Below, one piece after another: positions 15,501 through 34,685 of a stretch of 64,000 nucleotides of DNA. Source of the DNA: Chryseobacterium gleum (GTDB lineage: Bacteria > Bacteroidota > Bacteroidia > Flavobacteriales_C > GCA-002722245); assembly GCA_945871895.1 (NCBI GenBank), contig CAMBXP010000001.1:373-64372 (forward strand), written 5' to 3'. The first letter of the stretch is position 1. Each line of letters opens with the position of its first letter. The notes beneath the pieces are model-generated. The model searched no databases, was not told where the DNA came from, and saw nothing but the letters and a program-made list of their open reading frames with translations. Both the position numbers and the translations under genes were made by a program.

Positions 15501-15503
15501 AAC

Positions 15504-16466: not shown

Positions 16467-16535
16467 GCCCTCTTTTTTTACATTGATTATTAGACTATAA
16501 TTCACTATTTTCGCGCACGAACAATCGTTAGTGAG

Positions 16536-17666
16536 ATGAGAATTTTGGTGAATATGTCGACCCTTAAAAAAGGTGGCGGACAAAACGTAGGATTGAACTT
16601 TATTCATTGTATTTCAAAAGTGAAGTACAGCGATAAGGTGTTTTTCTATGCGGTTGTTCAAGATTCTGAAATTCATAAAGCACTGTTAGCATTGAATGAA
16701 AAGAATATTGTTCTAATGCCCGCGAATCCACTTAAAAAATTGTGGAGAGAATTAACGCAAGGGAGATCCATTGTGAAAGAAAATTCCATCGATATTATTT
16801 ATTCTTATTTCGGTTACGGCTTGTACCCTAAATCTTGTTTGCAAGTAAGTGGTTCTGCCGATTCTAATTTGTTCTTTCCCGAGATTGATTTTTGGCAACA
16901 TTACAGCGGACTCCAATTAATGGCCAAAAAGGCTATTGATTCTTTTCGAATTTGGGGTGTGAAACGTGCAACAGCTGTTATATTTGAAAATGCAGCCATG
17001 CAAAAAAGAGGTGTTGAGCTGTTTGGTTTAAAAAATACAACTTTCATAAAGCCATCTTTTTCCTTGGTAGAGAGTGATGCTCAATGGAACCTTCCGCATG
17101 CGGCTAAGAATAAGAAAGTCGGACTCTTTTTCTGCGGATGGCAGCTAAACAAAAATTATGAGCTAATTCCTCATTTGGCAGCAGAATTGAAACAAAGAAA
17201 AATTGATTTTCATTTTGTGATTACAGCTCCAGCAGATAATTCCATAGAACATGAAGCCTTTGTTCAGTCGCTTAGAAGTTTGAATGTTGAGAGTATGGTT
17301 TCGATAGTGGGCGCTATCAAAAAAGCCGAAATACCTAGCTTGTATCGCCAAATTGATTTTGTTTTTTTATTGAGTAATTTAGAAAGCTTTAGCAACAATA
17401 TTATTGAAGCATGGCAATTTGCTAAACCTTTGATGATAGCCAATGCCGAATGGTCGAAAGCTATTTGTAACGATGGTGCTTGTTATGTCGAACGAGTTGA
17501 TAAAACGAGTATTGCTAGCGCTTTGCAAGAATTAATTGAAAATGAAGCAAGCTATAGTGCCTTGGTGCAAAAAGGAAGAACTCAGCTGAGTGCGTATCCA
17601 AGTATTGAAGAAAGAACACAACAAGAAATAGATTACATTGAAAAAATATATCATGAGAATCGTTAA
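16536..17666 (+). CDS. Glycosyltransferase family 4 (GT-B)
   Basis: GT-B C-terminal domain pattern. It sits in the locus and overlaps the next gene. Confidence 0.7.
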
Positions 17667-18186
17667 AAGTTTTTTCGTTATATCCTTTGAACTGCTCATG
17701 AATGTGCTGTTTGCTTTGCCGCGTTACCGATTTTTCATTTTTTTCAAAAAAACTTTGCTGCAAATCATGGGGGCAAAGGTGGGAAAGAAGGTTTGCATTT
17801 ATCCAGGTGTTTGGATTACGCCTGGCAGAAACTTGGTGATAGAAGACGAGGTAGATTTAGCCAAAGATGTTTTAATTACCACTTCTGGTGGTGTGTTTAT
17901 TGGCAAAAGAACATTGGTAGGTTATCGCACACAAATTCTTTCGTCGAATCATACCATTCCGACTGTAGGAGAAGCTTTTCCCATTTCGGGAGATAAACAT
18001 ACACCCATTCACATTGCCAATGATGTGTGGATTGGCGCAAATTGCGTGATTACAGCTGGAGTGACCATTGGAGAAGGCGCGGTGATTGCTGCCGGTAGTG
18101 TGGTGACCAAAGATGTGCCCGAAAATGCTATTGTAGGTGGAGTGCCTGCCAAATTAATAAGATATAGAGAAAACAGTAAAATATGA
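17638..18186 (+). CDS. Left-handed beta-helix (hexapeptide) acetyltransferase, WcaF/LacA-like
   Basis: Repeated [LIV]G-x4 hexapeptides ([30 protein letters not shown]). Confidence 0.8.
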
Positions 18187-19322
18187 CAGCAAGAGCGTAT
18201 CAAATTTGTTCCAATTGTGCGATGGACACCACCGATAGTCAGATAGTATTTGATGACAAAGGGGTGTGCGATCATTGCAATACTTTTTACAATGTAATTC
18301 AACCCAACTGGCATACCAACGACAAAGGTGAACAAGCTATTCAAGCTGTTGCCGCAAAGATTAAGAAAGAAGGAGAAGGAAAAGATTTCGATTGTATCAT
18401 TGGTATGAGCGGTGGTATCGACAGCTCTTATTTGGTTTATTTGGCAAAAGAGAAGTTGGGTTTGCGTCCCTTGGTTTTTCACGTTGATGCAGGTTGGAAT
18501 TCGCAAGAAGCAGTAAACAATATTGAAAGAATTATTGAAAAATTAGGCTTGGATTTGTACACTGAGGTGATTGATTGGGAGGAGATGAAAGATTTGCAAC
18601 TGGCATACTTTAAGGCGGGTGTTTCTAACATCGATACGCCTCAAGATCATGCGTTTTTTGCTACCATGTACAAGTTCGCCAACAAGTATAAAGTGAAGCA
18701 TATCTTAACGGGAGGAAATTATTCTACCGAGTGTGTTCGCAATCCTTTAGAGTGGATGTATTATCAGTCGGATTCAATACAATTGAAAGATATTTACAAG
18801 CAATACGGTACAGGTAAACTAAACAATTTTCCTATCACCAATATCTTGTGGCACAAGGTGTATCTGCCCTACATCAAAGGGATAAAATTAATTCGTCCGC
18901 TCGACTATATGTTGTACGATAAAGAGGCAGCAACTCAGTTTTTGGTAGACAATTATGGCTATCAGCGTTATCCTCAAAAACATTTCGAATCGCGTTTCAC
19001 CAAATTTTACGAAGGTTATTGGTTACCCAAAAAATTCGGTTACGATACCAGAAAGGTGCAATATTCAAGTTTGATTTTAACCAAGCAAATGACTCGTGAT
19101 GAAGCTTTAGAAAAGTTAAAAACATTGCCTTACAACGAAGCAACCATCAAAGATGAGTTTGAATATATTGCCACTAAATTGGGTATTTCTGTAGCCGAAT
19201 TGGAAGGTTATTTAAATGCCCCTAACCGCTCAAACAGCGAGTTTAAATCACAACAATCTATGTACAGTATTGGTGCAAAAGTAATGCGTATGTTGGGCTT
19301 AGAAAAAGGAGGGAAAAGATGA
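18183..19322 (+). CDS. N-acetyl sugar amidotransferase (WbpG/LPS-biosynthesis PP-loop family)
   Basis: N-terminal Cys-rich CSNC...CDHC segment and the SGGIDSS PP-loop. It is followed directly by hisH- and hisF-like genes, as in the P. aeruginosa wbpG-hisH2-hisF2 set. Confidence 0.8.
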
Positions 19323-19933
19323 TCGCTATAGTGAACTATGGTTCTGGTAATATTGAGGCTTTTGCCAATATTTATAAGCGCTTGAATATTCCTCATTTTG
19401 TGGCTACTACAGCAGGCGATTTTGCCAATGCCACTAAATTGATTTTACCCGGAGTTGGTGCCTTTGATGAGACCATGCGTATATTGAATAATTCGGGAAT
19501 TGTTGAGGTATTGAATGATTTGGTTTTGGTAAAAAAAATGCCTGTATTGGGTATTTGTGTGGGTATGCAAATATTGGCGAATTCATCAGAAGAGGGACAA
19601 TTAAAAGGTTTGGGATGGATTGATGCCGAAGTTAAAAAGTTCGACACTTCCTTGCTTAAAACAAAACCACATTTGCCGCACATGGGATGGAACAATTATG
19701 AAGTGGTGAACAACAATATTTTGTTCGAAAATACTATTCCCGATAAGGGATTTTACTTCTTGCATTCTTACTACTTCCGCTGTAACAATAACGCTAATAT
19801 TATCTCTACTGCAGAGTACGGCGCTAAATACACCTGTGCAGTAAATTCAGGAAATATTTATGGCGTTCAATTTCATCCTGAAAAGAGTCACCACAACGGA
19901 ATTCAATTGTTAAAGAACTTTGCTAATTTGTAA
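19319..19933 (+). CDS. Imidazole glycerol phosphate synthase HisH-like glutamine amidotransferase (O-antigen paralogue)
   Basis: Class I GATase pattern: GICVGMQ with the catalytic Cys, and C-terminal HPE. Confidence 0.85.
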   Translation: MIAIVNYGSGNIEAFANIYKRLNIPHFVATTAGDFANATKLILPGVGAFDETMRILNNSGIVEVLNDLVLVKKMPVLGICVGMQILANSSEEGQLKGLGWIDAEVKKFDTSLLKTKPHLPHMGWNNYEVVNNNILFENTIPDKGFYFLHSYYFRCNNNANIISTAEYGAKYTCAVNSGNIYGVQFHPEKSHHNGIQLLKNFANL

Positions 19934-19936
19934 GTT

Positions 19937-20695
19937 ATGTTGCGCTCTAGAATAATTCCTAGTTTATTGGTTCACAAAAAAGGCTTGGTGAAAACCGTAA
20001 ATTTTAAAGACCCCAAATATGTGGGTGACCCAATCAATGCGGTTAAAATTTTCAATGAAAAGGAAGTAGATGAGTTGATTGTGTTAGATATTGATGCTAC
20101 CGTAAACAAGAAAGAGCCCGACTTCGAAATGATTAAAAATTTGGCAGCTGAATGCAGAATGCCCTTTTGTTATGGTGGCGGTGTTACTTCGGTAGAACAC
20201 GCCAAAAAAATTATTAAACTGGGTGCAGAAAAAGTGGCTTTAAGTGCCGCGGCTATTGCTAATCCTGAGTTGGTGACCAAGATATCTGAAGAGATAGGTG
20301 CGCAAAGTGTAGTGGTGGTTTTAGATGTAAAGAAGAAAGGTTTGTTTGGGAAATACGAGGTGTTTACGCACAACGGAACCAAAGCTACAGGAAAATCTCC
20401 GTTTGAATTGGCCGAAGATTTTGAGCGCCGAGGAGTTGGTGAAATTGTATTGAACAATATTGATACTGAAGGCACTATGAAAGGCTTCGATTTTAAATTG
20501 ATTGATGGTGTGCGCGAGATCATTTCAAAGCCTATGACGGTGTTGGGTGGCGCAGGAGATGCAGAGGATATTAAAAAGGTAATTGATAAATATAAAATCA
20601 TTGGTGTGGCTGCAGGAAGCCTTTTTGTTTTTAAAGGAAAATACCGTGCGGTGCTCATTAATTACACGCCTTACAATTCTTTGTTTAATTTATAA
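19937..20695 (+). CDS. HisF-like cyclase subunit (O-antigen paralogue)
   Basis: TIM-barrel HisA/HisF pattern (VLDID, GGGV, VLNNIDTEGT, GGAG). Confidence 0.85.
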   Translation: MLRSRIIPSLLVHKKGLVKTVNFKDPKYVGDPINAVKIFNEKEVDELIVLDIDATVNKKEPDFEMIKNLAAECRMPFCYGGGVTSVEHAKKIIKLGAEKVALSAAAIANPELVTKISEEIGAQSVVVVLDVKKKGLFGKYEVFTHNGTKATGKSPFELAEDFERRGVGEIVLNNIDTEGTMKGFDFKLIDGVREIISKPMTVLGGAGDAEDIKKVIDKYKIIGVAAGSLFVFKGKYRAVLINYTPYNSLFNL

Positions 20696-21147
20696 TGTCG
20701 GTTTTAAAAAAAATATACAAGTATTTTATTCGCTCAAATAACGAATCGCGTTATTTGGTGATAAAGGCTTTTTTTTATTGCGCTATGGTGCGTTTTTTAA
20801 TGCTATTTGTAAAGTATAAACGTTACGAAAAACGCTTGGGAAAAAGAGGAGTAGAATCAACAGAAGAGATAAGTGCCGAGCAATTTGAGTTGGTTAAGAA
20901 AGTGCGAAATGCGGTGCTTAGTGTAAGCAAAAACACCTTGTGGGAAAGCAAGTGTATGGTGCAAGCACTCTCTGCAAAGTGGATGTTAGAGAAATACAAT
21001 ATTCCATCTACCATTTATTTTGGCATTATGAAAGACCTCGAAAATCCTTCGGAATTGAAAGCACATGCTTGGTTAAAAGTGGGCGAATATATTGCCACCG
21101 GTAGAGAAGGCCACAAAAGTTTTAAAGTGGTGAATTTTTATTCTTAA
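20695..21147 (+). CDS. Lasso peptide biosynthesis B2-like transglutaminase-fold cysteine peptidase (PF13471-like)
   Basis: 150 aa with a conserved Cys (ESKCMVQALS) and an HAW motif (KAHAWLKVGEY) spaced as in McjB-C/B2 proteins. The start overlaps the hisF-like stop codon (TAATG). Confidence 0.6.
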   Translation: MSVLKKIYKYFIRSNNESRYLVIKAFFYCAMVRFLMLFVKYKRYEKRLGKRGVESTEEISAEQFELVKKVRNAVLSVSKNTLWESKCMVQALSAKWMLEKYNIPSTIYFGIMKDLENPSELKAHAWLKVGEYIATGREGHKSFKVVNFYS

Positions 21148-22253
21148 CTGAATAAATAGGTGATAGGTCTCAACAAAGGATAGAGTATTCTTCTGCCAAA
21201 AGGAAGCTTCACAATATTCATATCTCTTAAAGGAAAAATACTCATTTGGTACAAGGTAAATTTCAAATGAGGCTTCATGAAAACGCGTTGTTTCCACTTG
21301 CTTATTTTCGAAATTTCTTTACCCGATAAAGATTTTAATCCTTGCAATACATAAGGTGCTTGCTTGTTATTTATTTTGTTCGAAAAGGCAGCAGGAATAG
21401 GCATTTCTAAAGCGACATTACATAAAGAAATAGTCCCTAAAAATAGGTTCTCAATTTTGTTTTTCTTGGCCAATTCAAATACTTCGTTTAATTCTTCTTC
21501 ATTGAATTTTTGCAGCAATAAAACAATATCAATTAACCACATCATTTTTTCCCAATAATGAATTTTACCATGCGCCATCAAATACAATAACGTGTAGGCG
21601 TTGTTCATTCTGTAGATTTTTCGATTGCAGTAATTTTCGGTAACAAGATATTCTGATGTGTCTCTGGGAATTGCTAGAATATACGGATTTTTAAACAGTT
21701 TGAAATGTACGTCTAGTTTACTTTTGGCTGGTGAAAAATAGCCTTTCTCATTGTCGATTTTTAAGAATAAGTCGTATTCTTTTGGGTTTAAATCGAAGTT
21801 CGGACTATCCAACACAAACCCTTTCTCCAATAGTATTTTTTCAAGTTTAGTAAGATCTGCTGGAGCAACACAAATGTCTACATCGGTGGAGGTGCGCATG
21901 TTGTTGTTGCCATAAATCATTTCGTTGATAGGATGCCCTTTAAACAACACCATATCTATATTATTTTCTTTTGCTAAATCAACAATCTTTAGCAAATCAG
22001 CTTGCAACAATAGATTTTTGGTGAGCGATTTTTTAGCTCTTTTTACAAGTGCTTTTTTAATATTTTCCAATTCAGGAAAACGCTCTATATGAGCGGCAAT
22101 AAAAGCATTTAGATTATTTCTTGATATGAATTGAATCAATTGATCGTGATCGTAATTCACAGCAGGTAATGGCTCTTTGGTATTGAACAGAATGGTTTTC
22201 ACTATGGCCAAAACCATTTGAAATTCGGGGGTGATATAAGAGTGTTTGTTCAA
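21144..22253 (-). CDS. Nucleotidyltransferase-fold protein of the PF14907 type that co-occurs with lasso kinase clusters
   Basis: hG-S...DVDICV pol-beta-like NTase motif, about 370 aa, next to the B2 gene. Confidence 0.5.
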   Translation of the reverse strand: MNKHSYITPEFQMVLAIVKTILFNTKEPLPAVNYDHDQLIQFISRNNLNAFIAAHIERFPELENIKKALVKRAKKSLTKNLLLQADLLKIVDLAKENNIDMVLFKGHPINEMIYGNNNMRTSTDVDICVAPADLTKLEKILLEKGFVLDSPNFDLNPKEYDLFLKIDNEKGYFSPAKSKLDVHFKLFKNPYILAIPRDTSEYLVTENYCNRKIYRMNNAYTLLYLMAHGKIHYWEKMMWLIDIVLLLQKFNEEELNEVFELAKKNKIENLFLGTISLCNVALEMPIPAAFSNKINNKQAPYVLQGLKSLSGKEISKISKWKQRVFMKPHLKFTLYQMSIFPLRDMNIVKLPFGRRILYPLLRPITYLFS

Positions 22254-22286
22254 GTTAATAAAATGCTATTTGCGAAAGTAGTTATT

Positions 22287-22502
22287 TTATATTTTCTTTT
22301 TCCCCATATGCATGATCCAGCGCATTTTGTAGTTCTTTTTAAAGGCAATTAGAAATTCTTCTTTAGTAAAATTGAAGTGATGTTGTTGAGCAAAAAGCTG
22401 AATGCTCTCAAAACTTTTATTTTGAAGTGCTTTCATGTCATTTTGAAAATCGTTGTCTTCAAATGATTTTTGGAAGAATAGAATTGCGTCTTTTTCGCAC
22501 AT
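22287..22502 (-). CDS. Nif11-like domain small protein (71 aa)
   Basis: The pattern F.K...D..FQ..MKAL......E.I...A.Q..FNFTKEEF matches the Nif11/NHLP leader consensus (..aFleKvk.D..Lqeklka...eevv.lAke.GfeFtaeEl). Confidence 0.45.
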   Translation of the reverse strand: MCEKDAILFFQKSFEDNDFQNDMKALQNKSFESIQLFAQQHHFNFTKEEFLIAFKKNYKMRWIMHMGKKKI

Positions 22503-22546
22503 TATAACTAATTTGCGCTAAAATACAATTAAAATATAAATGCCTT

Positions 22547-23719
22547 ATGGATATTGATTTTGAATCGATGGGTTTTTTACTTGATCCTCACGAAACATAC
22601 GATAAGATTTTCGCTAGCCAGCCTATATTTTATTCTCAAAAGTATGGGGCTTGGATTTTTGCTGATTTTGCTACCGTTAAGTTGGCATTAAGTGATGATG
22701 AAAACTTCGCATATAACAAAAGAATAAAGCCAGCTGGAATTCAACAAAGCAGTTCAGGCAAACTTTTGGCGAATTGGATTTTAAATCAAACAGAAGAAGA
22801 TCATAAAACATTTAAACGAATTATTGGCACTTTTTTTTCCTCAAGTGCTGTTGGTCGTTTGGAGTTATATATGCAAGAAGAAACGCGTAAGATTTGTGAC
22901 GGATTTAACGAACAAGAAATTGACTTAGCTGATGTGTATGGCAATTTTTTTCCAATGAAATTAATGACAAAGATTTTAGGACTTAGGGAAGTTGATTTTG
23001 ATGTTATCAAAAAAGCGTCAAGAATGGCCGAACATTACGCCTATTTTCCTAATACCGATAAAGACAAAAAAATATTTGAGTTTGCTGTTTTCACATTAGA
23101 GAAATTTGTTAAAAATATTCTTGAAAACAATCATTATAGTAATGACGGACTGATTCACCATTTAGCATCATTCTATAAAAATGGTGAGATTACCTTAGAT
23201 GAGTTAGTTAGCAATACAATTTTGTTTGTAATAGCTTCTATCGAAACAACGAGTTATTCCCTAAACAATGCGCTCATGTTGTTACTCAAGTATCCCGAGC
23301 AACGAGCCTTGTTTCTGCAGAATAGTGATAAAGCAAATCAATATATTGATGAGTTAATGCGCTTTGAATCTTCTGTAAGTTATGTTAGGCGTTTTGCAGT
23401 CAAAGATTTTGATATGGCAGGGAATAAAATTAAAAAAGGAGATTTGGTTTTACTACTTGTAAATGCAGCTAACCGAGACCCTCTTGTTTATAATGAACCT
23501 AATGAATTCAATCTCGAAAGAGAGCATATTAAAAATTTAGCTTTTGGGCATGGGGTGCACGTATGTTTAGGATTGCATTTAGCAAAAATGGAAATCAAAG
23601 TAGCTACTACTTATTTTTTTAATAGGTATCCAAAGTGTGAGCTAGTAAATGAAACAGTTCAGTGGAATGATAGGTTTGGCTTTAGGGGAATTGTAAAGAT
23701 GAATGTAAAACTGAATTAG
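22547..23719 (+). CDS. Cytochrome P450
   Basis: FGHGVHVCLG heme-thiolate loop, the EXXR motif (ELMRFES) and an ASIETTS I-helix. Confidence 0.9.
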   Translation: MDIDFESMGFLLDPHETYDKIFASQPIFYSQKYGAWIFADFATVKLALSDDENFAYNKRIKPAGIQQSSSGKLLANWILNQTEEDHKTFKRIIGTFFSSSAVGRLELYMQEETRKICDGFNEQEIDLADVYGNFFPMKLMTKILGLREVDFDVIKKASRMAEHYAYFPNTDKDKKIFEFAVFTLEKFVKNILENNHYSNDGLIHHLASFYKNGEITLDELVSNTILFVIASIETTSYSLNNALMLLLKYPEQRALFLQNSDKANQYIDELMRFESSVSYVRRFAVKDFDMAGNKIKKGDLVLLLVNAANRDPLVYNEPNEFNLEREHIKNLAFGHGVHVCLGLHLAKMEIKVATTYFFNRYPKCELVNETVQWNDRFGFRGIVKMNVKLN

Positions 23720-23720
23720 T

Positions 23721-25748
23721 ATGTCGGTATTACAAAATGATTTATTTAAGATTTTCAAGCAAGATATTTCTTTGCTTTCTTCGCCAGAACAGTTAAAGCA
23801 AATTGAAATAATTTCCAAGTTATTACCTCCTATTTATCGCTCTGCAATTGAAGTAAGATTGGGTGATGATGATACCGTTGATTTTCACGTTAATATAAAA
23901 ACTGAAGATGATATTTCCTCCATATTGTTGTTTTTTAAAGAGTCAGGGTTTTATGAGCAACCAAAATGGAGCCCTTTGCTACATTTTTTAGAATTGTGGG
24001 AAAGCAATACTTATGATTTCCGTCATATAATTCCAGGTATATTTTTAGAGTATGATTTGTCTAAAAATGATGAACTCTATCAGGTGCCGTCTTTGTTTGT
24101 TAAAGTTGCGGTAGAAAAATTGAGCGCACAGCAAACTTATTCTTTGATAGAAAAATTAATACTAACTGTAAAAGGCGAAGATTATTTTAATGTATTTAAA
24201 GCTTTGCTTAGGCAAATTATTTTTACTGAGAAAGATTGTAAACTAGGTTACTTAGGCTTTATGCTTTCTCGTCCTGAGGAACTTTTACGCATTAATATTT
24301 ATAAAATTACAGCAATAGAAGTTGTGCCATTTTTAGAGCGATGCGGATGGAAAGGCAATGCTGGTGTTGTGAAAGATTGGGCGAAAAAAGTATCTGTTTA
24401 CTGTGATAAATATGTAGTGAGTTTCGATCTGTACAAAGATGCGGTGTTGCCTGCTATAGGCTTGGAGTGTTTTTGGAATAAATTACCCGATGAAGAGCCA
24501 CGTTGGTCTTTATTACTCGATGAATTGATGGAGCAAAACTTATGTACTTTAAGCAAGAAATCTTTGTTTTTGGAATGGAAAAAGGAGTTACTTCCTTTCG
24601 AAACGCAACAACCTTGGCCAGAACATTTGGCGATAGAATCTTTGTTGCGAAATGAGAAAGATTTTTCGAAGATAAAACAGTTGGTGAGTCACCTAAAAAT
24701 TTCTATTTCTTCTTTGGGAGATATTTCTGCAAAAGCATATTTGGGCTATGGAAATATATGGTTAAATAATTCTAAGGAGAAGATTACTAGGTCTTTGGCT
24801 CAATGTGAAAGTAGCGAAGAATCTGCACAGAAAGCCATTCAGTTTTTACTAAGTGAGCAACAGCAGTCGGGTTTTTGGAAAGATTTTGAAATATTTAAAG
24901 GGGCAGCAGATCAATGGGTGACCGCTTATGTAGCATCTGCATTGAATGAGACGAATTCAAAGAGTGAAGTTCTAGCTGCAATCAATAGAGCGTGGTGCGC
25001 ATTGAAAGATACTTTCAGAGAGGGTGAAGGATGGGGCTATAATTTTTATACTCCTTGTGATGGAGATAGCACCGCATGGAGTTTATATCTTGCCTCATTT
25101 TGTGATCCATCATTTTATATGAGGCATAAAACGCTTATTGAAAGATATAAGGGTGCCGATGGTTTGCTGACTACCTATGTTGACGAAGAGGATATATTGC
25201 GTTACATAAACCTTCAACCTGAATCGGGAATACTGGGTTGGAACTCTTCTCACCTTTGTATTTCAGGTGTTGCAGCGAAATTGGAGGGATCTTGTTCCAT
25301 TGAAGCTATAGCAAGTAAGCAAAACGAGCAGGGCTATTGGCAGGGCTATTGGTGGCAGCACCATAGCTACACTACTTACTATTGTTTGAAAGCCTTAATG
25401 GCAGAAGATAGTAAGTTTGATGGGCAAATCAATAAGGCAAGAAGGTGGTGGAGAGAGCAAGATTTTGCATCAATAGACAGCATTTTTTATCGTGCGTTAT
25501 GGGTTGAAATTGGATTGTTACTTAGAGAAGATAAAAGTATTATTGATAATGCCATAGCCTCTATTATGAAGGAGCAATTGGTGAGCGGATCATGGATAGG
25601 AGATGCGCGTATTATAGTGCCGATGCCCAATCATCTTTTACAAAATTCATCTTTAAGTTGGCTGAAGCATGATGTGAATGGTATTTTCACTACAGCTACT
25701 TGTTTACGTTTGTTAACGAATTACCAAAATCATTATGGAAAAAAGTAA
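23721..25748 (+). CDS. Two-domain protein: unknown N-terminal about 350 aa plus a C-terminal prenyltransferase/squalene-oxidase-repeat (QW-motif alpha/alpha-toroid) domain
   Basis: C-terminal repeats QQQSGFWKD, NEQGYWQGYWWQHH and QLVSGSWIGD resemble terpene-cyclase QW motifs. There are only 2 nt between the P450 stop and this start. Confidence 0.5.
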   Translation: MSVLQNDLFKIFKQDISLLSSPEQLKQIEIISKLLPPIYRSAIEVRLGDDDTVDFHVNIKTEDDISSILLFFKESGFYEQPKWSPLLHFLELWESNTYDFRHIIPGIFLEYDLSKNDELYQVPSLFVKVAVEKLSAQQTYSLIEKLILTVKGEDYFNVFKALLRQIIFTEKDCKLGYLGFMLSRPEELLRINIYKITAIEVVPFLERCGWKGNAGVVKDWAKKVSVYCDKYVVSFDLYKDAVLPAIGLECFWNKLPDEEPRWSLLLDELMEQNLCTLSKKSLFLEWKKELLPFETQQPWPEHLAIESLLRNEKDFSKIKQLVSHLKISISSLGDISAKAYLGYGNIWLNNSKEKITRSLAQCESSEESAQKAIQFLLSEQQQSGFWKDFEIFKGAADQWVTAYVASALNETNSKSEVLAAINRAWCALKDTFREGEGWGYNFYTPCDGDSTAWSLYLASFCDPSFYMRHKTLIERYKGADGLLTTYVDEEDILRYINLQPESGILGWNSSHLCISGVAAKLEGSCSIEAIASKQNEQGYWQGYWWQHHSYTTYYCLKALMAEDSKFDGQINKARRWWREQDFASIDSIFYRALWVEIGLLLREDKSIIDNAIASIMKEQLVSGSWIGDARIIVPMPNHLLQNSSLSWLKHDVNGIFTTATCLRLLTNYQNHYGKK

Positions 25749-26016
25749 AGGGCTTTCGCAATCAAAACACACTCATTATTTTGCTATACCCACTTAAATT
25801 CCTGCTTTAATAATAAATATCCTTCTTCACCTTTGTTGGGGATTTTTTATTGTTACCATAATTATAGTAAATGGTGAAGCCCTTATGGTCGTTCCTTTAT
25901 ATTATTTTATGGAACTACCTTTCATCCAACTTGGAAAGTACTAAATAAAAAAGCATCTCGAAAATTAATAAGTACCGATATCAAAGTTTTTTTTATCTTA
26001 GCCAAAAATTACAATT

Positions 26017-26127
26017 ATGGAAAACAAGAAAACTTGGGTTAGTCCCCAATTTAATTTAGTGGATGTAGATTCAACGGCTTCTGGACCCTTTGGAACTTCG
26101 GTGGAATCAGGATCATACGGTTCATAA
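26017..26127 (+). CDS. Candidate lasso peptide precursor (36 aa), MENKKTWVSPQFNLVDVDSTASGPFGTSVESGSYGS; not in the ORF track
   Basis: ATG at 26017 and TAA at 26125. It has Thr at -2 of the putative leader/core junction (..DSTA|SGPFGTSVE..). The core SGPFGTSVE with Glu9 parallels the paeninodin core AGPGTSTPD with Asp9. The C-terminal Ser sits immediately upstream of the HPr-kinase-like gene. Confidence 0.5.
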   Translation: MENKKTWVSPQFNLVDVDSTASGPFGTSVESGSYGS

Positions 26128-26187
26128 TACAGAAGATTCTAGTTGTTGGTGTGGAGGAAATTTTCCATACTTGTTTAGTCGAATTTT

Positions 26188-27096
26188 TTGTATTTTCGCC
26201 CCATGCAAAAAAAGTACATCGCAGGGGGAATCATCATTGAAACAGATATTGAATTTCCCGAGTTAATTTTGACAGAAGGCCCAACAGATGTTGTTTTGGC
26301 TTATGGCAAAGTGCCTGGGGAGCTGCCTAATGTTAAAAATGAAAAAGCTTTGTTTTCAAGCAATGAAAACGAAGTATTGTTTAGAATGCCCGATATCGCG
26401 AGATATTTAATTGAAGGGTATTCAAAAATCACCATAGAATTAATAGACGAAAAAAGAAAAGCTGATGCTGAAAAGTATATTCTTACTTTTATTTTAGGCG
26501 TTTTATCTTTCAAAAAAGGCTTTTACCCTTTGCATGGCGGTGGCGTTATACACAACGGCGAAGCGTATTTGTTTACTGGTCATTCTGGTGCTGGTAAATC
26601 TACCACTATGGCAGGTTTGCAACAAAGAGGTTTGCAGCCCGTGGGCGACGATATAGCGAATCTTTTTGTGAAAGATGGTAAAGTATATGTTCATCCTTGT
26701 TTTCCGCGTTTTAAACTGTGGAAAGACTCATTGAATTTTTTAAATAAGAAGGGTTCTGGAGAGTATCATTTGCGCAGCGACATGGAGAAATTTTTAGTGC
26801 CTATGGGCGATGATTTTTCTATTGAACCTGTGCCAGTAAAAAGAATCTATTTGTTGGTGGAAGACCGCAATTTCGAGTATTCATTTAAGGAAATTAAAGG
26901 GAAAGAAAAATTGCAGCGTTTAAAAGTAAATAGCTACAAACCTTGGATGGTAAAAGCTTTTTCTTTGAACCAATTGCATTTCGGATTGATGAATGATATT
27001 GTGGGTAAGCTTGAAATCACAGAATATCACCGGCCGCTCGACAAAGCAAACCTTGAGAAAATGTACGATTTATTGATCGAAAACATCAAGGCCTAA
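26188..27096 (+). CDS. HPr-kinase-like serine kinase (candidate lasso peptide kinase)
   Basis: HGGGVIHNGEAYLFTGHSGAGKSTT P-loop, as in HprK C-terminal domains and lasso precursor kinases. Confidence 0.6.
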   Translation: MYFRPMQKKYIAGGIIIETDIEFPELILTEGPTDVVLAYGKVPGELPNVKNEKALFSSNENEVLFRMPDIARYLIEGYSKITIELIDEKRKADAEKYILTFILGVLSFKKGFYPLHGGGVIHNGEAYLFTGHSGAGKSTTMAGLQQRGLQPVGDDIANLFVKDGKVYVHPCFPRFKLWKDSLNFLNKKGSGEYHLRSDMEKFLVPMGDDFSIEPVPVKRIYLLVEDRNFEYSFKEIKGKEKLQRLKVNSYKPWMVKAFSLNQLHFGLMNDIVGKLEITEYHRPLDKANLEKMYDLLIENIKA

Positions 27097-27965
27097 TGTT
27101 TACTCCACAAAAGAGAATAATTTGGCTAACGTCTTATCCTAAGTCGGGAAATACTTGGATGCGCTTGTTTTTACATGCTCTGCACACAGGTTCTAGCGAG
27201 TTACTAAATTTAGAAGACATTGAAGCTACCAACGGCATTGCTTCTTCTCGCGCATTAATCGACAATAATTTAGGTGTATACACTTCTGATATGCCCGATC
27301 TAGATGTACAGAAATTAAGAGGAGAAGCCTACAAATATTGGTCATCGGTATTGACAGATGATGTTATTGTAAAAGTACACGACGCAGCTTTTCATCGCGG
27401 AATCGTCACTTTTCCTAAAGAAGTAACGAAGAAAGTAATTTTCATTGTGCGCAATCCTTTTGATATGGTGGCTTCTTATGCTAACCATATGGGCTGCGAT
27501 ATCAAAATGGCTGTTTGGATGTTGTGCGATGGAAACAATACTTTAGCTAAATCGAAAAACAGATTAGGAACACAAGTGTCTCAGTACATGGGCTCGTGGA
27601 GCGATTATTACAACAGCTGGAAGAATTTGTATCGTGATGAAATGATAGTGGCGCGCTACGAAGACATGAAGCACGATTCACTCAATACTTTTAGAAAGGT
27701 GGTTGATACTTTGGGTTGGAACAAAACGGATGAAGATATTTTAAAAGCATTAGAGGCCAGTAAATTCGATAAAGTAAAGAGTTTAGAGAACGATAAAGGC
27801 TTTAAAGAGAAACCTCCCAAAACGGAAGCTTTTTTTCGTAAAGGTCAAACTGGAGGATGGAAGAATGAAATTACTGCAGAGCAAGCTCAAATTCTAGTTG
27901 ACAGACATTTTTATACTTTATTGGAATTAGGGTATATTGATGAAAAAGGGGTCATTTTAGTGTAA
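27096..27965 (+). CDS. Sulfotransferase-domain protein
   Basis: YPKSGNTWMR 5'-PSB motif and a downstream RNP..D 3'-PB region. The start overlaps the kinase stop. Confidence 0.75.
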   Translation: MFTPQKRIIWLTSYPKSGNTWMRLFLHALHTGSSELLNLEDIEATNGIASSRALIDNNLGVYTSDMPDLDVQKLRGEAYKYWSSVLTDDVIVKVHDAAFHRGIVTFPKEVTKKVIFIVRNPFDMVASYANHMGCDIKMAVWMLCDGNNTLAKSKNRLGTQVSQYMGSWSDYYNSWKNLYRDEMIVARYEDMKHDSLNTFRKVVDTLGWNKTDEDILKALEASKFDKVKSLENDKGFKEKPPKTEAFFRKGQTGGWKNEITAEQAQILVDRHFYTLLELGYIDEKGVILV

Positions 27966-28039
27966 ACTAAAATGCCCCCTTTTTCATTTGATTGTGCGGT
28001 GGAAAAAAAGATTTGAATACAATAAAATAAACGAAAAAG

Positions 28040-29863
28040 ATGTCTAGTATTTACGGTTACACAGGAAAAAAAGAAGCCCAAAAATTGATGAGTAATGCCT
28101 TACGTCATTGGCAGCCCGATCGAGAAAATTTTATAGAACGCGAAGCCTTTACTTTGGGCGCATTAGAGCTTTTCAAAACACCCGAATGTCCGCTTGTTGC
28201 GCTGCCTTATGCCTATAAAAATTTCCACATAGTAGCAGATTGTAGAATAGATAATCGTGAGGAGTTGGCAAAGGAATTAGGTGTTAGCGACATTTCAAAA
28301 CACAGTGACATCGAATTTATTGCGCGTGCATATGAGAAGTATGGAGAGGATGCGCCAAAGAAATTAAAGGGAGATTTTGCCTTTGTCATTTGGGATGAAA
28401 GTAATCAAGAGCTTTTCGCTGCTACAGATCACTTTGGTGTTCGAACTTTGTATTATACAGTAGTTGAAAATCAATTGATTTTTGCTAGTGAAATGAAGGG
28501 GATTTTGGCCTATCCTACTTTCAAAAAAGAGTACAATGAAGCCTATATCGTAAGTCAGTTTTCTGCCTTGCAAATTCCTATTCAAGATACCTTTTATTTG
28601 AATTTGTTTTTGCTTCCTCCAGCGCATCATTTTACTTTTAAAAACGGCAAATTAGACCAAAAAAAATATTGGACATTAGGAGATACTGTTGTTGAAATAC
28701 CCGCTACTGTTGCCCAGCAAGAAGCCGAATTTAATCGATTGGCTTATCAAAGTGTTCGCTCACGATTACGCAGTTACAAAAAAATTGGTGCCGAGGTGAG
28801 TGGAGGGTTGGATTCTACAGGTATTGCTGCTGCGGCTATGGAGATTTTAGGTAAGGGGCACCCTTTTTATTCTTATTGTTATGGTAAGCCCGATGTTTCT
28901 GCGGGAGATCACGACCAAAAAGACGATACCCATGTAGTGCGTGAGATGTGTAAAAAATACGATATTGAGCAATATTTCACGGTGGTGAATGAGAAAGATT
29001 TGTTAGCTGATGATTTATTGAAGACAATGTGCACTGTTTACGATGATATAGAGAGCAATGGTGTGCCTTTGTTTACCGCTTCATTTTTGCCACACGCTCA
29101 GAAAAATGATGTTGGTATTATGTTTTCGGGATGGGCTGGAGACCAAATGGTAACCGATACCTGTGGTGGTTTTCCTGAAGCTTTGGCGTACGAAAAAAAC
29201 TATATAGGTTTGTGGAAAGATATTATTCGTAGGCATAATTTTGTAGGCAGTGTTGCACGTTTTTGGGTGTATGCTATTAAGTGCTGGAACAGCAAAGGTT
29301 TTTACAATCTCAATGTAGATAAGCAAAGAAAACTGTTGCAAGATTTTCATTTAAAAAAGTCATTTATTCAAAAATACAAATTAGACACATTACCAGGGTT
29401 GCGTTATTATTTAAAAAGTTGTACCGACATACGTACTTATCATTTTCGCAATCTTCAACATGCTGGTATTCAAAAACGAACTTGTGATCATGTGTTAATG
29501 GGCAAGCACTTTAAAGTAGATTATCGTTTTCCTATGTTGGATTTAAATTTCTTGGAATACATTAATTGTTTGCCTTTTGATACCATCGCGCCGAAGGGGA
29601 AAAATAGGTATCTGTACAAACAATTTGCTGCACCATTGGTACCACAGGAATTACTTAGAGTACATAAAAGCAAAGTGCCTACGACACCCTTTGCTTATAA
29701 GTACATGAAGGATAATTTGCCTTTTTTTATAGAACAATACAAATCGTTGGAAAAAAGTACGTTTAATGATTTTGTGGATTCTTCATCGTTAGATGTTGAT
29801 TCAGGCAATTCAAATCACAAAGAGTATTTGCGCATGTATTTCTTTGCTAAAAAGATGCGTTAG
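28040..29863 (+). CDS. Asparagine-synthetase-like lasso cyclase (lasso C protein)
   Basis: AsnB-like N-terminal domain without the Cys2 nucleophile (MSSIYGY) and the SGGLDS PP-loop. Length about 600 aa. Confidence 0.75.
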   Translation: MSSIYGYTGKKEAQKLMSNALRHWQPDRENFIEREAFTLGALELFKTPECPLVALPYAYKNFHIVADCRIDNREELAKELGVSDISKHSDIEFIARAYEKYGEDAPKKLKGDFAFVIWDESNQELFAATDHFGVRTLYYTVVENQLIFASEMKGILAYPTFKKEYNEAYIVSQFSALQIPIQDTFYLNLFLLPPAHHFTFKNGKLDQKKYWTLGDTVVEIPATVAQQEAEFNRLAYQSVRSRLRSYKKIGAEVSGGLDSTGIAAAAMEILGKGHPFYSYCYGKPDVSAGDHDQKDDTHVVREMCKKYDIEQYFTVVNEKDLLADDLLKTMCTVYDDIESNGVPLFTASFLPHAQKNDVGIMFSGWAGDQMVTDTCGGFPEALAYEKNYIGLWKDIIRRHNFVGSVARFWVYAIKCWNSKGFYNLNVDKQRKLLQDFHLKKSFIQKYKLDTLPGLRYYLKSCTDIRTYHFRNLQHAGIQKRTCDHVLMGKHFKVDYRFPMLDLNFLEYINCLPFDTIAPKGKNRYLYKQFAAPLVPQELLRVHKSKVPTTPFAYKYMKDNLPFFIEQYKSLEKSTFNDFVDSSSLDVDSGNSNHKEYLRMYFFAKKMR

Positions 29864-29902
29864 TGCATAATTGATAGAAAGTTAGAAAATTCTCTTATTT
29901 TT

Positions 29903-30193
29903 GTGGAAAATCAACTTGATATGGAATTGACTCAAAAAATCGCTCGCAGTGATAATTTCGTTTTTAACGAGGTAGATGGCGAGTTAGTAATGATGAATAT
30001 TGAAACTGGTGCTTATGCATCATTGAATGAAACAGGGAAATCAATTTGGACTTTGTTAGATGCCCCTAAAAGTTTATCTGAAGTAGTTAGTTCTTTGGTT
30101 GAAGAATACGAAATCGATCAAGCTACTTGTGAAAAAGAGGTGTTGCCATTTGTAGAAAATATGTTGAAAAGTGAAGTTTTAATAAAAGCATAA
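29903..30193 (+). CDS. PqqD-family RiPP recognition element (lasso B1 protein)
   Basis: 96 aa with the FNEVDGELVMMNIETGAYASLNETGKSIWTLL pattern typical of PqqD/B1 proteins. Confidence 0.7.
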   Translation: MENQLDMELTQKIARSDNFVFNEVDGELVMMNIETGAYASLNETGKSIWTLLDAPKSLSEVVSSLVEEYEIDQATCEKEVLPFVENMLKSEVLIKA

Positions 30194-30315
30194 TAATGGA
30201 AATGAATAATGTAAAGAAAGTTTGGATTTCGCCAGCTTTTACCCAAGAGTTATTGATTAACACTAATAAACTCCCCAATGCTATAGAAACCACCACTTCT
30301 TTTAGTACCTGATGC

Positions 30316-31224
30316 ATGTATCGCTATCGAATTCAATCATTAAATGAAAAACAGCAGAATCTTTCTGCTGTTTTTGTTGATGCCCATATCAAAGAAATTG
30401 AAACCTGTATTAAAGGTATAAGAGATGTTTTTGATGTGCTTTGGAGTACTTCTACAATTGATTCTTCTTACCCTTCCATTTCACAAGAAATTCAAACTTA
30501 TAAATCCCGACAAAGAAAAAATGATTTAGCGCTTTATCCTGTTGGTTTTTGCTATCCTATTACTCAGTTTTGTTTTAAAATATTACATCAAAACCTTCAA
30601 GAAAATACGCAACATATTGTACAGCGCTATTTGGATGAGGGTGGTGTTTTGAAAATTATTTGGGGTGATTTACGCGGTGAATATTTTCAAACAGCAATAC
30701 AGTTAGGCGATTGGTACATTGATTTGGCGTACGATGCGATAGATAGAAATAAACCTAAAATTCGTTGCGCTCGTTTTCATGAATCTGACTTTAAAGACAT
30801 CACTTCTTTTCAGCAGTATATTTGTATTAAAGAACAGTACCATAAAGGAGAAATATATATAAACAATATTCTACCCGAATTATTTCCTCATTTTCCTTTT
30901 ATTTTTGAGAATACTGAAGGGCGAATTTCGATAGAGGAATCTGAATATGTGCGCGCTTTGTTGGAGGACAAAGATACAGATGTGCTGACAAGCTATCTCC
31001 GTGATGAATCGGCTTTGAAATTTCTTGATCTTGAGCAAAAGGAAAGAATTAAATCGGCATTGTCGAAAATTGGCGAAGCTTATGTTTACTTTCCCTTCTT
31101 ACAATTTAAAGAATTAGATACGAGCCAATTACTTGCTAAAATTGAAAAAGAAAAAATTAATTCAATGCCCTCTGTTTTACCTAAAGTGGTGAACAACATC
31201 AATTTCATGCTTTCACTATGTTGA
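30316..31224 (+). CDS. Hypothetical protein (302 aa) inside the RiPP cluster
   Basis: No family recognised from sequence. Same strand as the C and B1 genes. Confidence 0.3.
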   Translation: MYRYRIQSLNEKQQNLSAVFVDAHIKEIETCIKGIRDVFDVLWSTSTIDSSYPSISQEIQTYKSRQRKNDLALYPVGFCYPITQFCFKILHQNLQENTQHIVQRYLDEGGVLKIIWGDLRGEYFQTAIQLGDWYIDLAYDAIDRNKPKIRCARFHESDFKDITSFQQYICIKEQYHKGEIYINNILPELFPHFPFIFENTEGRISIEESEYVRALLEDKDTDVLTSYLRDESALKFLDLEQKERIKSALSKIGEAYVYFPFLQFKELDTSQLLAKIEKEKINSMPSVLPKVVNNINFMLSLC

Positions 31225-31227
31225 TAT

Positions 31228-32430
31228 TTACAACAATTCAATTTCGCTTTTCAACTTTTTCAATTCATATTTAAGGGAGATTTCGTCTCCCTTTTTTACG
31301 TTTTTTACTTTGGGTAAATAGAATATTTTTAATCCCCAATGGTTGTCTTCATTTATTTTATTTTGTGCTAAAGATAGTGTGTTTTCTTCGCTCAGTGTCG
31401 CTTCAAAATAAACATGAATTCCGTTCAATTCTCCTTCTTTATCTATGGTTATTTGATGCGTACTTAATTTTTGAAAATCAGTCTTTTCATCGAAATGTAC
31501 ATCTATTACTTTAAGAGGAGAAGATAAAGCCTTGCATTTCTTTAAATCTACATTACTCATGTTTAGCAGAACTGGCTTTTCATCAACATAATTTTGAAAA
31601 GCAGAGAAATCAACCTGGTAATCTTTTTTCCAGGTTTTGATGTTGTTTTCGTGCACCAAACTATTGGTGTATTTTTCATTGGGCATTTCAAAAGTTTGTA
31701 AGTAAATCGCTATGCTTTCAGGAATCAGTTTTGCCTTGGGCGTTAACAATCGCTTTTTAGCATCTTCAAAAGTGCCTAATATACCTTCGTCGAACGCGTC
31801 GTTTCCAATAATTTCACTAATTAAAACACTAGCCTTTTCGGGCAGCTCTATATCTCTAGAATCCCCTTTAATTAAAGTGATTTTATCTTCTAAACCGTTG
31901 GCTTTAAATACTGCCCTGGCTACCTCAATAAACTCGGTTCTTTCTATTGCATAAACATGTTTTGCACCGCACATCGCCGCTGTAGCCGCTAAAATACCGT
32001 TGCCAGTTCCTATATCTAAAACAATATCATTGGGTGTTACTTTAGCCCGAATGGCTTTTTGAAAAGCTAAGGTGCGCGTTTTGTCATTCAACATTCTTAC
32101 ATGAACAGGAAATGAATCAAACTTACTACCGTGAAAACTAAAGGTATTTTTTGCTTCGTCTTTCACATCAAAAAATCCTTTTTTTAATAGCTCATGAAAG
32201 TTGCTGCTTACGCCAAAAAAATCATTTTTGTGTTTGCATTTTTCGGCCATTAATTTAGTGCCTTCTTCAATGCTTTTCCATTTGCTAAAAATATCAAGAA
32301 TAATGAGTGAAGCGTAGTTTAAAGGCAATTTCTGTTGATCGAATTTTACTACCCAGCCGAGTTCAGTAAATTCAACTTTTAAGCCTTTTTTAAAACGAAT
32401 GATATCTTTCTTATTCATAAAGACAAACAT
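31228..32430 (-). CDS. Class I SAM-dependent methyltransferase, PRMT-like
   Basis: VLDIGTGNGILAATAAMCGA motif I, a post-I acidic residue (YAIE), and the SEI/THW-like region of protein arginine MTases. Confidence 0.65.
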   Translation of the reverse strand: MFVFMNKKDIIRFKKGLKVEFTELGWVVKFDQQKLPLNYASLIILDIFSKWKSIEEGTKLMAEKCKHKNDFFGVSSNFHELLKKGFFDVKDEAKNTFSFHGSKFDSFPVHVRMLNDKTRTLAFQKAIRAKVTPNDIVLDIGTGNGILAATAAMCGAKHVYAIERTEFIEVARAVFKANGLEDKITLIKGDSRDIELPEKASVLISEIIGNDAFDEGILGTFEDAKKRLLTPKAKLIPESIAIYLQTFEMPNEKYTNSLVHENNIKTWKKDYQVDFSAFQNYVDEKPVLLNMSNVDLKKCKALSSPLKVIDVHFDEKTDFQKLSTHQITIDKEGELNGIHVYFEATLSEENTLSLAQNKINEDNHWGLKIFYLPKVKNVKKGDEISLKYELKKLKSEIELL

Positions 32431-32466
32431 AGTTTAAAATTTTAAAAAATTCCCGACTTTTGCCGC

Positions 32467-34125: not shown

Positions 34126-34160
34126 AATCAGAGTGAGAGTGAGAGTGAAATTTGTGTGCG

Positions 34161-34382
34161 TTAATCTGTAATGAAAATGACTTCATTATTTGAGTAGCTT
34201 AGACTTCCTTGGCGCAACATATATTCGGTTTTATGTGCTTTTACAAATTCTTCTGCGGTAAAATCGAAATTTAACTTTTTGGCTTGTTCTAAAATCTCAG
34301 AAACCTCCATATGATTGGTATCCAAAATTATTTCCTTCTTTCTCACTTTAGAGATGAATTGTACAGCGCTATTGATACTCAT
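34161..34382 (-). CDS. Nif11-like small protein, paralogue of 22287..22502
   Basis: From the internal Met: MSINSAVQFISKVRKKEIILDTNHMEVSEILEQAKKLNFDFTAEEFVKAHKTEYM. It aligns along its length with the first Nif11-like ORF (F.K., NF.FT.EEF, K..Y.M). The longer track ORF 34161..34442 probably over-extends. Confidence 0.4.
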   Translation of the reverse strand: MSINSAVQFISKVRKKEIILDTNHMEVSEILEQAKKLNFDFTAEEFVKAHKTEYMLRQGSLSYSNNEVIFITD

Positions 34383-34596: not shown

Positions 34597-34685
34597 ATGA
34601 AAAATATTTTGATTGTTTTCGCTGTTTATTATTTGTCTGCCAAATTACATATTTTCAATTCGAATATTTACCTATATTCGATTGT

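Follow-up and report, generated by a model that had tools for sequence, protein, structure and literature searches.

The closest described relatives of the gene cluster considered here are lasso peptide clusters that encode a kinase. The pseudomycoidin (psm) cluster of Bacillus pseudomycoides has the order psmC-A-K-B1-B2-N-D (PMC6993621); in clusters of the paeninodin type (pade, Paenibacillus dendritiformis) the leader-recognition gene B1 and the leader peptidase gene B2 are adjacent or overlapping. Phosphorylation of a C-terminal Ser by the kinase has been shown for both paeninodin and pseudomycoidin (PMC8498205; PMC6993621), and PsmN is required for the addition of a hexose to the phosphorylated Ser (PMC6993621; PMC8498205). 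Sulfotransferase and nucleotidyltransferase (NTase) genes have been noted in the flanks of kinase-containing lasso clusters (Zhu et al. 2016, via PMC8498205). In Firmicutes clusters the NTase gene N lies beside B2, and fusions of B2 with an NTase have been reported (PMC8498205). The subject of this analysis is a B2 gene that departs from the usual layout. It is found in a 64,000-nucleotide stretch of contig CAMBXP010000001.1, hereafter the window, from an uncultured Flavobacteriales genome, where it abuts a surface-polysaccharide operon and is separated from B1.

The locus resembles psm in its split B1 and B2 genes, an HPr-kinase-like kinase (K), a PF14907-type NTase beside B2, an ATP-binding cassette (ABC) exporter and a precursor that ends in Ser. 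As in the paeninodin cluster and other kinase-containing clusters, the kinase is predicted to act on a C-terminal Ser (PMC8498205). Unlike psm, B2 is located 8.8 kb from B1 and adjoins the polysaccharide operon, and N is inverted and convergent with B2. The locus also differs in having three precursors, a sulfotransferase, a methyltransferase that resembles protein arginine methyltransferases (PRMT), a JmjC-type oxygenase, a 302-aa protein (U302), and a cassette of P450, prenyltransferase-cyclase and Nif11-like genes. The architecture is a variant of the known split-B, kinase/NTase-type lasso clusters, of which it has the K gene (recognized by full-length homology), the Ser-ending precursor and the PF14907 NTase. 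A link between paeninodin-type lasso clusters and a polysaccharide operon has not, to our knowledge, been described, and literature searches on lasso clusters in Bacteroidota or on a connection to polysaccharides returned nothing relevant. From the evidence presented below, B2 is probably the leader peptidase of a kinase/NTase/sulfotransferase-type lasso cluster and at the same time the last cistron of the polysaccharide operon, the two sides of the locus behaving as separate recombination units.

The 150-aa B2 protein was assigned to its family by PF13471 of Pfam (E = 4e-19, 69 bits, cut-off 26) and by the NCBIfam model NF033537, lasso_biosyn_B2 (80.4 bits, cut-off 33). The start codon at 20695 is backed by 35 homologues of approximately 150 aa with N-termini that align from M1. 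Throughout these homologues Cys87 and His124 are invariant, and most of them, though not every one, have an acidic residue at position 131. The ratio of nonsynonymous to synonymous substitution rates (dN/dS = 0.03–0.15) indicates strong purifying selection. Over its full length, B2 is 30–41% identical to the B2 proteins of canonical K-B1-B2-(N)-D clusters from Clostridia, Bacilli and Paenibacillus, where the B2 genes overlap B1. When a family profile hidden Markov model (HMM) was searched against the six-frame translation of the window, B2 was the sole PF13471-like open reading frame (ORF). The partner B1 and the macrolactam synthetase C are encoded in the same locus, as is also the case in the relatives L009, L178, L179, L180 and L181. 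The C and B1 genes start 6,892 and 8,755 nt past the B2 stop codon, in agreement with the earlier note on this DNA, which had placed them about 7 kb downstream. B1 is not a neighbor of B2 in this locus; the adjacency of the two genes is a layout convention and not a biochemical requirement.

Immediately upstream of B2 are 13 co-directional genes of a Wzx/Wzy-type polysaccharide operon (Table 1). Their order is Wza-like exporter, 343-aa ORF, Wzx flippase, PGA_cap, ATP-grasp, EpsG-like, GT1, acyltransferase_3, GT1, hexapeptide acetyltransferase, WbuX, HisH and HisF2, with intervening gaps of −14 to +19 nt and a single exception of 87 nt. The last three proteins all exceed the curated cut-offs of their NCBIfam models and constitute an acetamidino-sugar module: WbuX (TIGR03573, 319 bits, cut-off 203), HisH (TIGR01855, 225 bits, cut-off 105) and the HisF-like protein, a member of the AglZ/HisF2 acetamidino family (NF038364, 369 bits, cut-off 310). 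The three genes match the families of the wbuX-wbuY-wbuZ and wbpG-hisH2-hisF2 acetamidino-sugar modules of O-antigen loci (TIGR03573, TIGR03572, NF038364), and we know of no RiPP (peptide synthesized on ribosomes and then modified post-translationally) protease gene that follows such a module in the O-antigen loci described. As the earlier note had claimed, the A of the B2 start codon is also the final base of the hisF2 stop, in the context tttaTAATGtc (positions 20680–20699 read tttgtttaatttaTAATGtc). A stop/start overlap by itself is ordinary operon spacing. The junction is noteworthy because the same tight spacing recurs in relatives after unrelated upstream genes. Base composition was also considered as a marker of the cluster boundary and was dropped; all genes have a GC content of 0.31–0.41, and neither GC nor GC at third codon positions (GC3) per gene separates the polysaccharide from the lasso genes.

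Table 1. Features of the polysaccharide operon, the lasso cluster and its right flank, in window coordinates.
Feature	Position	Strand	Basis and remarks
Wzx/Wzy-type surface-polysaccharide operon	6488–20695	+	13 co-directional genes; Pfam, gene calls
Acetamidino-sugar module	18183–20695	+	WbuX 18183–19322, HisH 19319–19933, HisF2 19937–20695
TAATG junction	20693–20697	+	hisF2 stop TAA 20693–20695, B2 ATG 20695–20697, 1-base overlap
B2, lasso leader peptidase, transglutaminase-like Cys protease, 150 aa	20695–21147	+	PF13471, NF033537
PF14907 nucleotidyltransferase (NTase, PsmN-like)	21144–22253	−	Pfam E = 6e-36, 124.7 bits; gene caller start 22217 (357 aa)
Nif11-like ORF, 71 aa	22287–22502	−	PF07862, E = 4e-5
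Cytochrome P450	22547–23719	+	PF00067, E = 6e-29
Prenyltransferase-terpene cyclase fusion ("QW protein"), 675 aa	23721–25748	+	phmmer, AlphaFold2, Foldseek
Precursor A1, 36 aa	26017–26127	+	ORF list, leader motif
HPr-kinase-like kinase K	26188–27096	+	Weak Pfam Hpr_kinase_C match, E = 0.002, below cut-off; gene caller start 26203
Sulfotransferase	27096–27965	+	PF00685, E = 1e-24
C, lasso macrolactam synthetase (Asn-synthetase-like)	28040–29863	+	Asn_synthase/GATase_7
B1, PqqD-type leader-recognition protein (RiPP recognition element, RRE)	29903–30193	+	PF05402, E = 2.5e-18
Precursor A2	30196–30312	+	Leader motif
Conserved 302-aa protein (U302)	30316–31224	+	Homologues of 302–313 aa in L009, L178, L179, L181
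PRMT-like methyltransferase	31228–32430	−	PF22528, PF06325; conserved in L009, L179, L180, L181
ABC exporter (D)	32467–34125	+	PF00005, PF00664
JmjC-type oxygenase, last enzyme gene of the cluster	34686–35855	+	PF08007
Precursor A3	35902–36012	−	Motif scan; right cluster edge
Housekeeping right flank: class II tRNA synthetase, ribonucleotide reductase small and large chains	36046–42895		Pfam

The contexts of B2 in other genomes were gathered from exact-protein look-ups, a scan of 185,579 species-representative genomes and a metagenome scan, and the window proteins were mapped onto all of the loci (given L or P numbers) by tblastn. The window B2 belongs to a clade from uncultured Flavobacteriales that is made up of freshwater and marine metagenome-assembled genomes (MAGs), with about a dozen non-redundant relatives that are 53–97% identical in B2. 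Outside of the clade, B1 is found no more than 500 nt from B2 in 64 of 90 loci; within the clade, this is true of none. The clade B2 always lies behind a co-directional gene at a gap of −23 to +11 nt, and eight different genes occupy this upstream position: HisF2 (window, L006, L091, P0001), a 734-aa double glycosyltransferase (GT; L007, P0006), a 629–631-aa amidotransferase resembling asparagine synthetase (AsnS; L009, L015, L094, L176), a 368-aa GT (L011, L092), a hexapeptide acetyltransferase (L012), a 380-aa GT (L174/L014), a 328-aa ORF of unknown type (L099) and RidA (L096–98, L171–173). The AsnS-like genes were considered as candidate cyclases and rejected, being only 22–28% identical to C and having an orthologue 53–62% identical to C downstream in the same loci; they are provisionally treated as polysaccharide amidotransferases.

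The TAATG junction is also present in L007, L094 and L176/177, with ATGA in its place in L009, L012 and L015. In L177, a B2 protein identical to that of L176 is found behind a rearranged polysaccharide locus in which the AsnS gene is truncated. On its other side, B2 is followed by a convergent PF14907 NTase in all of the polysaccharide-linked loci. In the window the two genes have a 4-nt TTAA double stop in common, and the convergent overlap recurs in L007, L012, L014 and L006. In the comparison of related loci that the earlier note had suggested, hisF does not always precede B2, the tight junction at the operon end is retained, and C and B1 are found in every polysaccharide-linked locus that could be traced far enough. 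The placement of B2 at the operon end is a layout inherited throughout the lineage and not a one-off accident. Of note, L093 carries a polysaccharide deacetylase gene (683–1543) between B2 and the NTase, which makes B2 an internal member of an operon-like array and not the last one.

A polysaccharide-linked B2 lacking C and B1 would have placed the gene in the polysaccharide system, and no such case was found in any locus traceable far enough. Both C and B1 are present in the window, L009, L094, L174, L176/177, L178 (which extends L007), L179 (which extends L015) and L181 (from the MAG of L011). On the short contigs L095 and L099, C alone was seen. The compared sequence stops before C in L012, where there is a lasso precursor with the clade leader, and in L092, where such a precursor is accompanied by K and the sulfotransferase. 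In L181, a separate contig of the L011 MAG, the genes encode a C-B1 fusion, U302, the PRMT-like protein, the ABC exporter and JmjC. The fusion itself is 717 aa in length (L181 3256–5409; Flavobacteriales MAG GCA_049430665.1). A second, canonical cluster with the order B1-B2 (142 aa)-A-C-JmjC was observed at L179 1–3839, between the polysaccharide-linked B2 and the K-sulfotransferase-C cluster; the L015 MAG has two B2 genes approximately 11 kb apart.

The distance from B2 to C varies across the clade from 1.2 kb in L095 to approximately 21 kb. In L095, and in L099 where the distance is about 3.3 kb, C is 45–47% identical to the window C. An orthologue with 53–62% identity is found at 3.3 kb in L009 and at 7.2–7.7 kb in L094, L174 and L176/177. 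On the L007 contig a C-B1-U304-ABC series is 10.3 kb from B2 (L178), and on the L015 contig C is 20.9 kb away (L179). The layout is minimal in L095 (B2-NTase-C) and in L099 and L009 (B2-NTase-K-sulfotransferase-C). In L094, L174 and L176, an MBOAT gene, a 275-aa ORF, a precursor and a second AsnS-like gene are situated between the sulfotransferase and C, while the window has the Nif11/P450/675-aa cassette between the NTase and A1. A related cassette with a large protein of 33–34% identity is found elsewhere and in the opposite orientation in L007, L011, L012, L092 and L180, with two copies in L007. Because relatives show minimal layouts and differing fillers, the 7-kb gap is a variable, insertion-prone middle region, and modules of differing content have been inserted between the NTase and C more than once. 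Tryptophan halogenase genes were also observed in the middle regions of L012 (19400–20440) and L015 (14826–16355), along with MBOAT and methyltransferase genes, which suggests that related clusters may produce halogenated or acylated lasso variants.

These comparisons modify the description of the interval in the earlier note, which had listed a P450/QW-protein/Nif11-like/NTase block between B2 and C. The genes are all present, but the NTase and the Nif11-like ORF are encoded on the minus strand. The list was also incomplete, as the interval holds A1, K and a gene at 27096–27965 that encodes a sulfotransferase and not an NTase. What had been regarded as one tailoring block combines two things, an old partner of B2 (the NTase) and a mobile cassette (the remainder). 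The NTase is placed outside of the insert because in Firmicutes clusters, too, N comes directly after B2, and the two are known as fusions; along most of its length it shares 23–27% identity with these N genes. The earlier note had further posed module insertion and operon membership as alternatives. They are not exclusive and both are supported, the former by the variable middle region and the latter by the conserved abutting junction.

Comparison of closely related loci suggests where exchange has taken place. Between L174 and L176, an 8.7-kb block from K to the methyltransferase is 98–99% identical in DNA and 97–100% identical in protein, whereas identity falls to 56% for B2 and to 25% for the NTase, and the polysaccharide genes are not related. 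The breakpoint is in the NTase/K intergenic region at about 11586–11672, a pattern that points to a recent exchange between the NTase and K. Similarly, K of the window is 96–97% identical to K of L011/L092 but B2 only 65–67%. In L176 and L177, a block of 98.7% identity opens within the last polysaccharide gene, approximately 1 kb ahead of B2; further upstream the sequence is rearranged. There are also two NTase types, NT1 and NT2, with 25–28% identity; NT2 accompanies the AsnS-ending loci and NT1 the others. Over evolutionary time, B2 and the NTase have thus traveled together with the polysaccharide side instead of with C and B1, although lasso genes lie downstream in each such locus examined. 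The polysaccharide locus with B2-NTase constitutes one recombination unit and the block from K to C another.

A subgroup of the clade provides a contrast. In L096–L098 and L171–L173, a B2 gene at about 10001–10450 with 58–60% identity to the window B2 abuts RidA (gap +1) and is convergent with a pectate-lyase-like gene whose product is secreted by the type IX secretion system (T9SS). These copies fall inside the clade in a neighbor-joining tree, which is an indication only as it is based on a 150-aa protein and has no support values. Their dN/dS of 0.18–0.22 shows purifying selection that is more relaxed than in the other B2 genes of the clade. The B2 family can persist apart from the cluster, possibly with another role. 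A parallel may be drawn with unclustered lanthipeptide proteases (PMC8960859), where the maturation protease is likewise away from the core genes and, as would hold for the window B2, in a different transcription unit; however, these are not lasso proteases and are encoded elsewhere in the genome, whereas the window B2 has kept its place at the margin of the lasso locus. Truly unclustered B2 genes may exist in the RidA-linked subgroup only.

Transcription of B2 with the polysaccharide operon is supported by the conservation of the abutting, co-directional junction across the clade, and co-transcription of hisF2 and B2 is inferred from this position. With no intergenic space at B2, a promoter of its own would have to lie in coding sequence. 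A scan of 20441–20779 identified no terminator-like site, and the Bacteroidetes −7 motif TAnnTTTG is absent from the plus strand of 16979–21719, which takes in 3.7 kb upstream of B2. Promoter and terminator scans are weak predictors and cannot settle co-transcription: terminator-like sites were not enriched (10 vs 7.3), a sigma-70 scan gave fewer promoter-like sites than shuffled sequence (23 vs 34.5), and the −7 motif occurs at chance level in the window (93 found, 92.7 expected), so that its absence is weak evidence. The adjacency could instead reflect genome compaction only: B2 would be read from its own promoter within the 3′ part of the upstream gene, with its regulation tied to the lasso genes and independent of the polysaccharide operon. 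The freshwater and marine Flavobacteriales MAGs of this clade are tightly packed throughout, promoters in Bacteroidetes are hard to predict, being short and AT-rich, the −7 scan has no discriminating power here, and the sigma-70-type scan gave a weak 9/12 match at 20571–20598; a promoter inside hisF2 could be present. This explanation is nonetheless considered unlikely, as an internal promoter would need to be re-created in at least six unrelated upstream genes, the −7 motif is missing upstream, and the spacing of the junction equals that among the polysaccharide genes themselves. A better contender, although still the less likely one, is that the layout has no regulatory meaning and that the polysaccharide locus is a recombination hot spot, with B2-NTase in a conserved flank that serves homologous cassette exchange. 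The block shared by L176 and L177 and the breakpoint between the NTase and K in L174 and L176 would both be expected from such exchange. A hot spot leaves unexplained both the retention of a junction of only a few nt each time the last gene is replaced and the abutting layout of the RidA-linked copies. It is also compatible with B2 being a lasso leader peptidase at the end of a polysaccharide operon, and does not exclude it.

Several observations weigh against the favored reading of the locus. Neither a sequence search nor a Foldseek search with the AlphaFold2 model of B2 (predicted local distance difference test, pLDDT = 87.9) gave a significant match among solved structures (best Foldseek E = 0.2), and for this reason the fold assignment is based on the HMMs and the invariant Cys and His. 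No lasso gene is found within 10 kb upstream or 4–7.5 kb downstream of the RidA-linked copies. The first core residue of precursor A2 is Lys, which is atypical for a lasso peptide, while its orthologue in L182 has Asp. Pseudomycoidin, moreover, was made without B1 and B2 in heterologous hosts (PMC6993621), which questions whether B2 is required. The B2-like protein could in principle serve the polysaccharide pathway, for instance as a transglutaminase-like amidase or acyl-transferase, with the lasso cluster having no B2 or making use of host proteases. In keeping with this, B2 is part of an operon-like array with polysaccharide genes, often just after a glutamine amidotransferase (HisH/HisF2 or AsnS-like), it precedes a polysaccharide deacetylase gene in L093, and with the NTase it follows the polysaccharide side in the comparison of L174 and L176. 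Set against these points are the score of B2 on a lasso B2 equivalog-domain model, far above its cut-off, its full-length identity to B2 proteins that overlap B1 in canonical Firmicutes clusters, the lasso genes in every polysaccharide-linked locus that could be traced, and the lack of another B2 in the window. The polysaccharide chemistry upstream varies by locus, which argues against a specific polysaccharide role, and the RidA-linked copies sit away from any polysaccharide locus, so B2 is not part of that system. A polysaccharide function for B2 is considered highly improbable, and B2 is treated below as the lasso leader peptidase.

The functional cluster, of some 15 kb, extends from B2 (20695) to A3 (36012), with its left edge at the hisF2/B2 junction and its right edge by the tRNA synthetase gene. 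The right flank is syntenic with L180 and L181. K is 20–32% identical over its full length to K genes beside B1/B2 in Firmicutes clusters and 90–97% identical to K of L007/L011/L092. The best NCBIfam match of C is the lasso cyclase model NF033535, at 251 bits and under its strict cut-off of 525, and orthologues of C with 53–88% identity occur in the same cluster type. B1 reaches 79 bits against a cut-off of 80 with NF033536, lasso_PqqD_Bac. U302 always comes after B1/A2 in this cluster type and had no match in Pfam, NCBIfam or the PDB. The JmjC gene is found in the same position in L176, L179, L180 and L181.

Three precursors were identified that share a KKxW[IV]xP leader, have Thr at −2 and carry a Glu at core positions 7–9. 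A1 (MENKKTWVSPQFNLVDVDST-A-SGPFGTSVESGSYGS) has a predicted Ser1-Glu9 ring and a C-terminal Ser. A2 (MEMNNVKKVWISPAFTQELLINT-N-KLPNAIETTTSFST; T-N/K1..E7) has the leader motif of A1 and ends in Thr; its L182 orthologue is located at the same place after C-B1. A3 (MQTAKKNWIAPQISEMEIEET-L-SGSPGGSERAEMSS; T-L/S1..E8) ends in Ser. Precursors of L007, L011, L012, L092, L094 and L174 likewise have the KKxWxxP leader motif and a TY[GAS]S ending of the core. The third precursor (MQTAKKNWIAPQISEMEIEETLSGSPGGSERAEMSS), found between JmjC and the tRNA synthetase gene, moves the cluster edge outward, and small ORFs orthologous to it follow JmjC in L179 and L180. A terminator-like hairpin is present at 26148–26171, 21 nt after the A1 stop codon and ahead of K, and could serve as an attenuator, adjusting how much precursor transcript is made relative to enzyme transcript.

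The "QW protein" of the earlier note is indeed encoded in the interval, and its identity can be refined. Residues 366–651 of this 675-aa protein match MstE from the cyanobacterium Scytonema (PDB: 6sbb–6sbg), a monodomain class II meroterpenoid cyclase, both in sequence (phmmer against the PDB, 6sbg, E = 4.5e-29) and in fold (Foldseek, E = 4.5e-16, target-based template modeling score TMt = 0.77–0.80). In the AlphaFold2 model (pLDDT = 85.5), residues 1–345 present five alpha-alpha-beta-beta repeats, for which Foldseek identified the ABBA aromatic prenyltransferases AmbP1, EpzP, NphB/Orf2 and DMATS (E about 1e-4, TMt = 0.5–0.59). The protein consists of an ABBA-fold aromatic prenyltransferase domain (approximately 1–345) fused to an MstE-like class II terpene cyclase (366–651). 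Unlike MstE, the cyclase is fused to a prenyltransferase-fold domain and is encoded in a lasso cluster, with the P450 and the Nif11-like ORF as neighbors. In other genomes the apparent N-terminal domain is found alone or fused to a methyltransferase or P450, these being matches that cover about half of the query and have no cyclase Pfam match.

The Nif11-like ORF always adjoins the prenyltransferase-cyclase gene in L007, L011, L012, L092 and L180, as well as in the second copy in L178. An alignment of five orthologues showed that it is conserved end to end, with an invariant NYxMRW near the C-terminus. As a classical RiPP precursor with a hypervariable core it was rejected in that simple form, since conservation in the C-terminal part equals that of the Nif11 domain; the product could be a small accessory protein or a substrate peptide of conserved sequence. 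The cassette may tailor the lasso peptides or may be a nested meroterpenoid/peptide-prenylation pathway.

A model of the locus can be proposed in which the cluster occupies 20695–36012 between a Wzx/Wzy-type polysaccharide operon and housekeeping genes, and in which the usual B1-B2 pair has been broken in this lineage. B2 and its old neighbor, the inverted and convergent NTase, form the left end and C-B1-A2-U302-PRMT-ABC-JmjC-A3 the right end, with the insertion-prone middle between them. B2 would be transcribed with the 13 polysaccharide genes as a fourteenth, final cistron, where the TAATG overlap may permit termination-reinitiation of translation. From the families to which the proteins belong, B2 is expected to act in trans with B1, which would bind the shared leader of A1, A2 and A3, and to cut after the residue that follows Thr(−2). 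C would then close the ring between residue 1 and Glu7–9, and K would phosphorylate the C-terminal Ser or Thr. The NTase is expected to add a sugar to the phosphate, the sulfotransferase, PRMT-like and JmjC proteins may tailor the peptide further, and the ABC transporter would export it.

The link to the polysaccharide might also be functional, with the PsmN-like NTase taking a sugar supplied by the locus and adding it to the lasso peptides at their phosphorylated C-terminal Ser. This would explain why B2-NTase is inherited with the polysaccharide locus and why NT1 and NT2 track the locus type. The idea is speculative and rated as improbable. If true, the mature peptide would be released only while sugar donors are made, B2 being the last cistron, and the product would be a lasso peptide bearing a strain-specific surface-glycan unit and, in the window, perhaps also a cyclized prenyl group.

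Since B2-NTase recombines with the polysaccharide side, the evolutionary units of this locus do not follow its functional boundary. The orphan copies beside RidA raise the question of whether a lasso B2 may act on clusters elsewhere in the genome or has taken on a second role. RODEO and antiSMASH define lasso clusters by the proximity of B1, B2 and C, and in a clade where B2 is 1–21 kb from C and looks like the end of a polysaccharide operon, such tools will draw the boundaries wrongly or score the cluster without its B2. The layout provides a testable case of a RiPP maturation protease that would be expressed from a cell-envelope operon.

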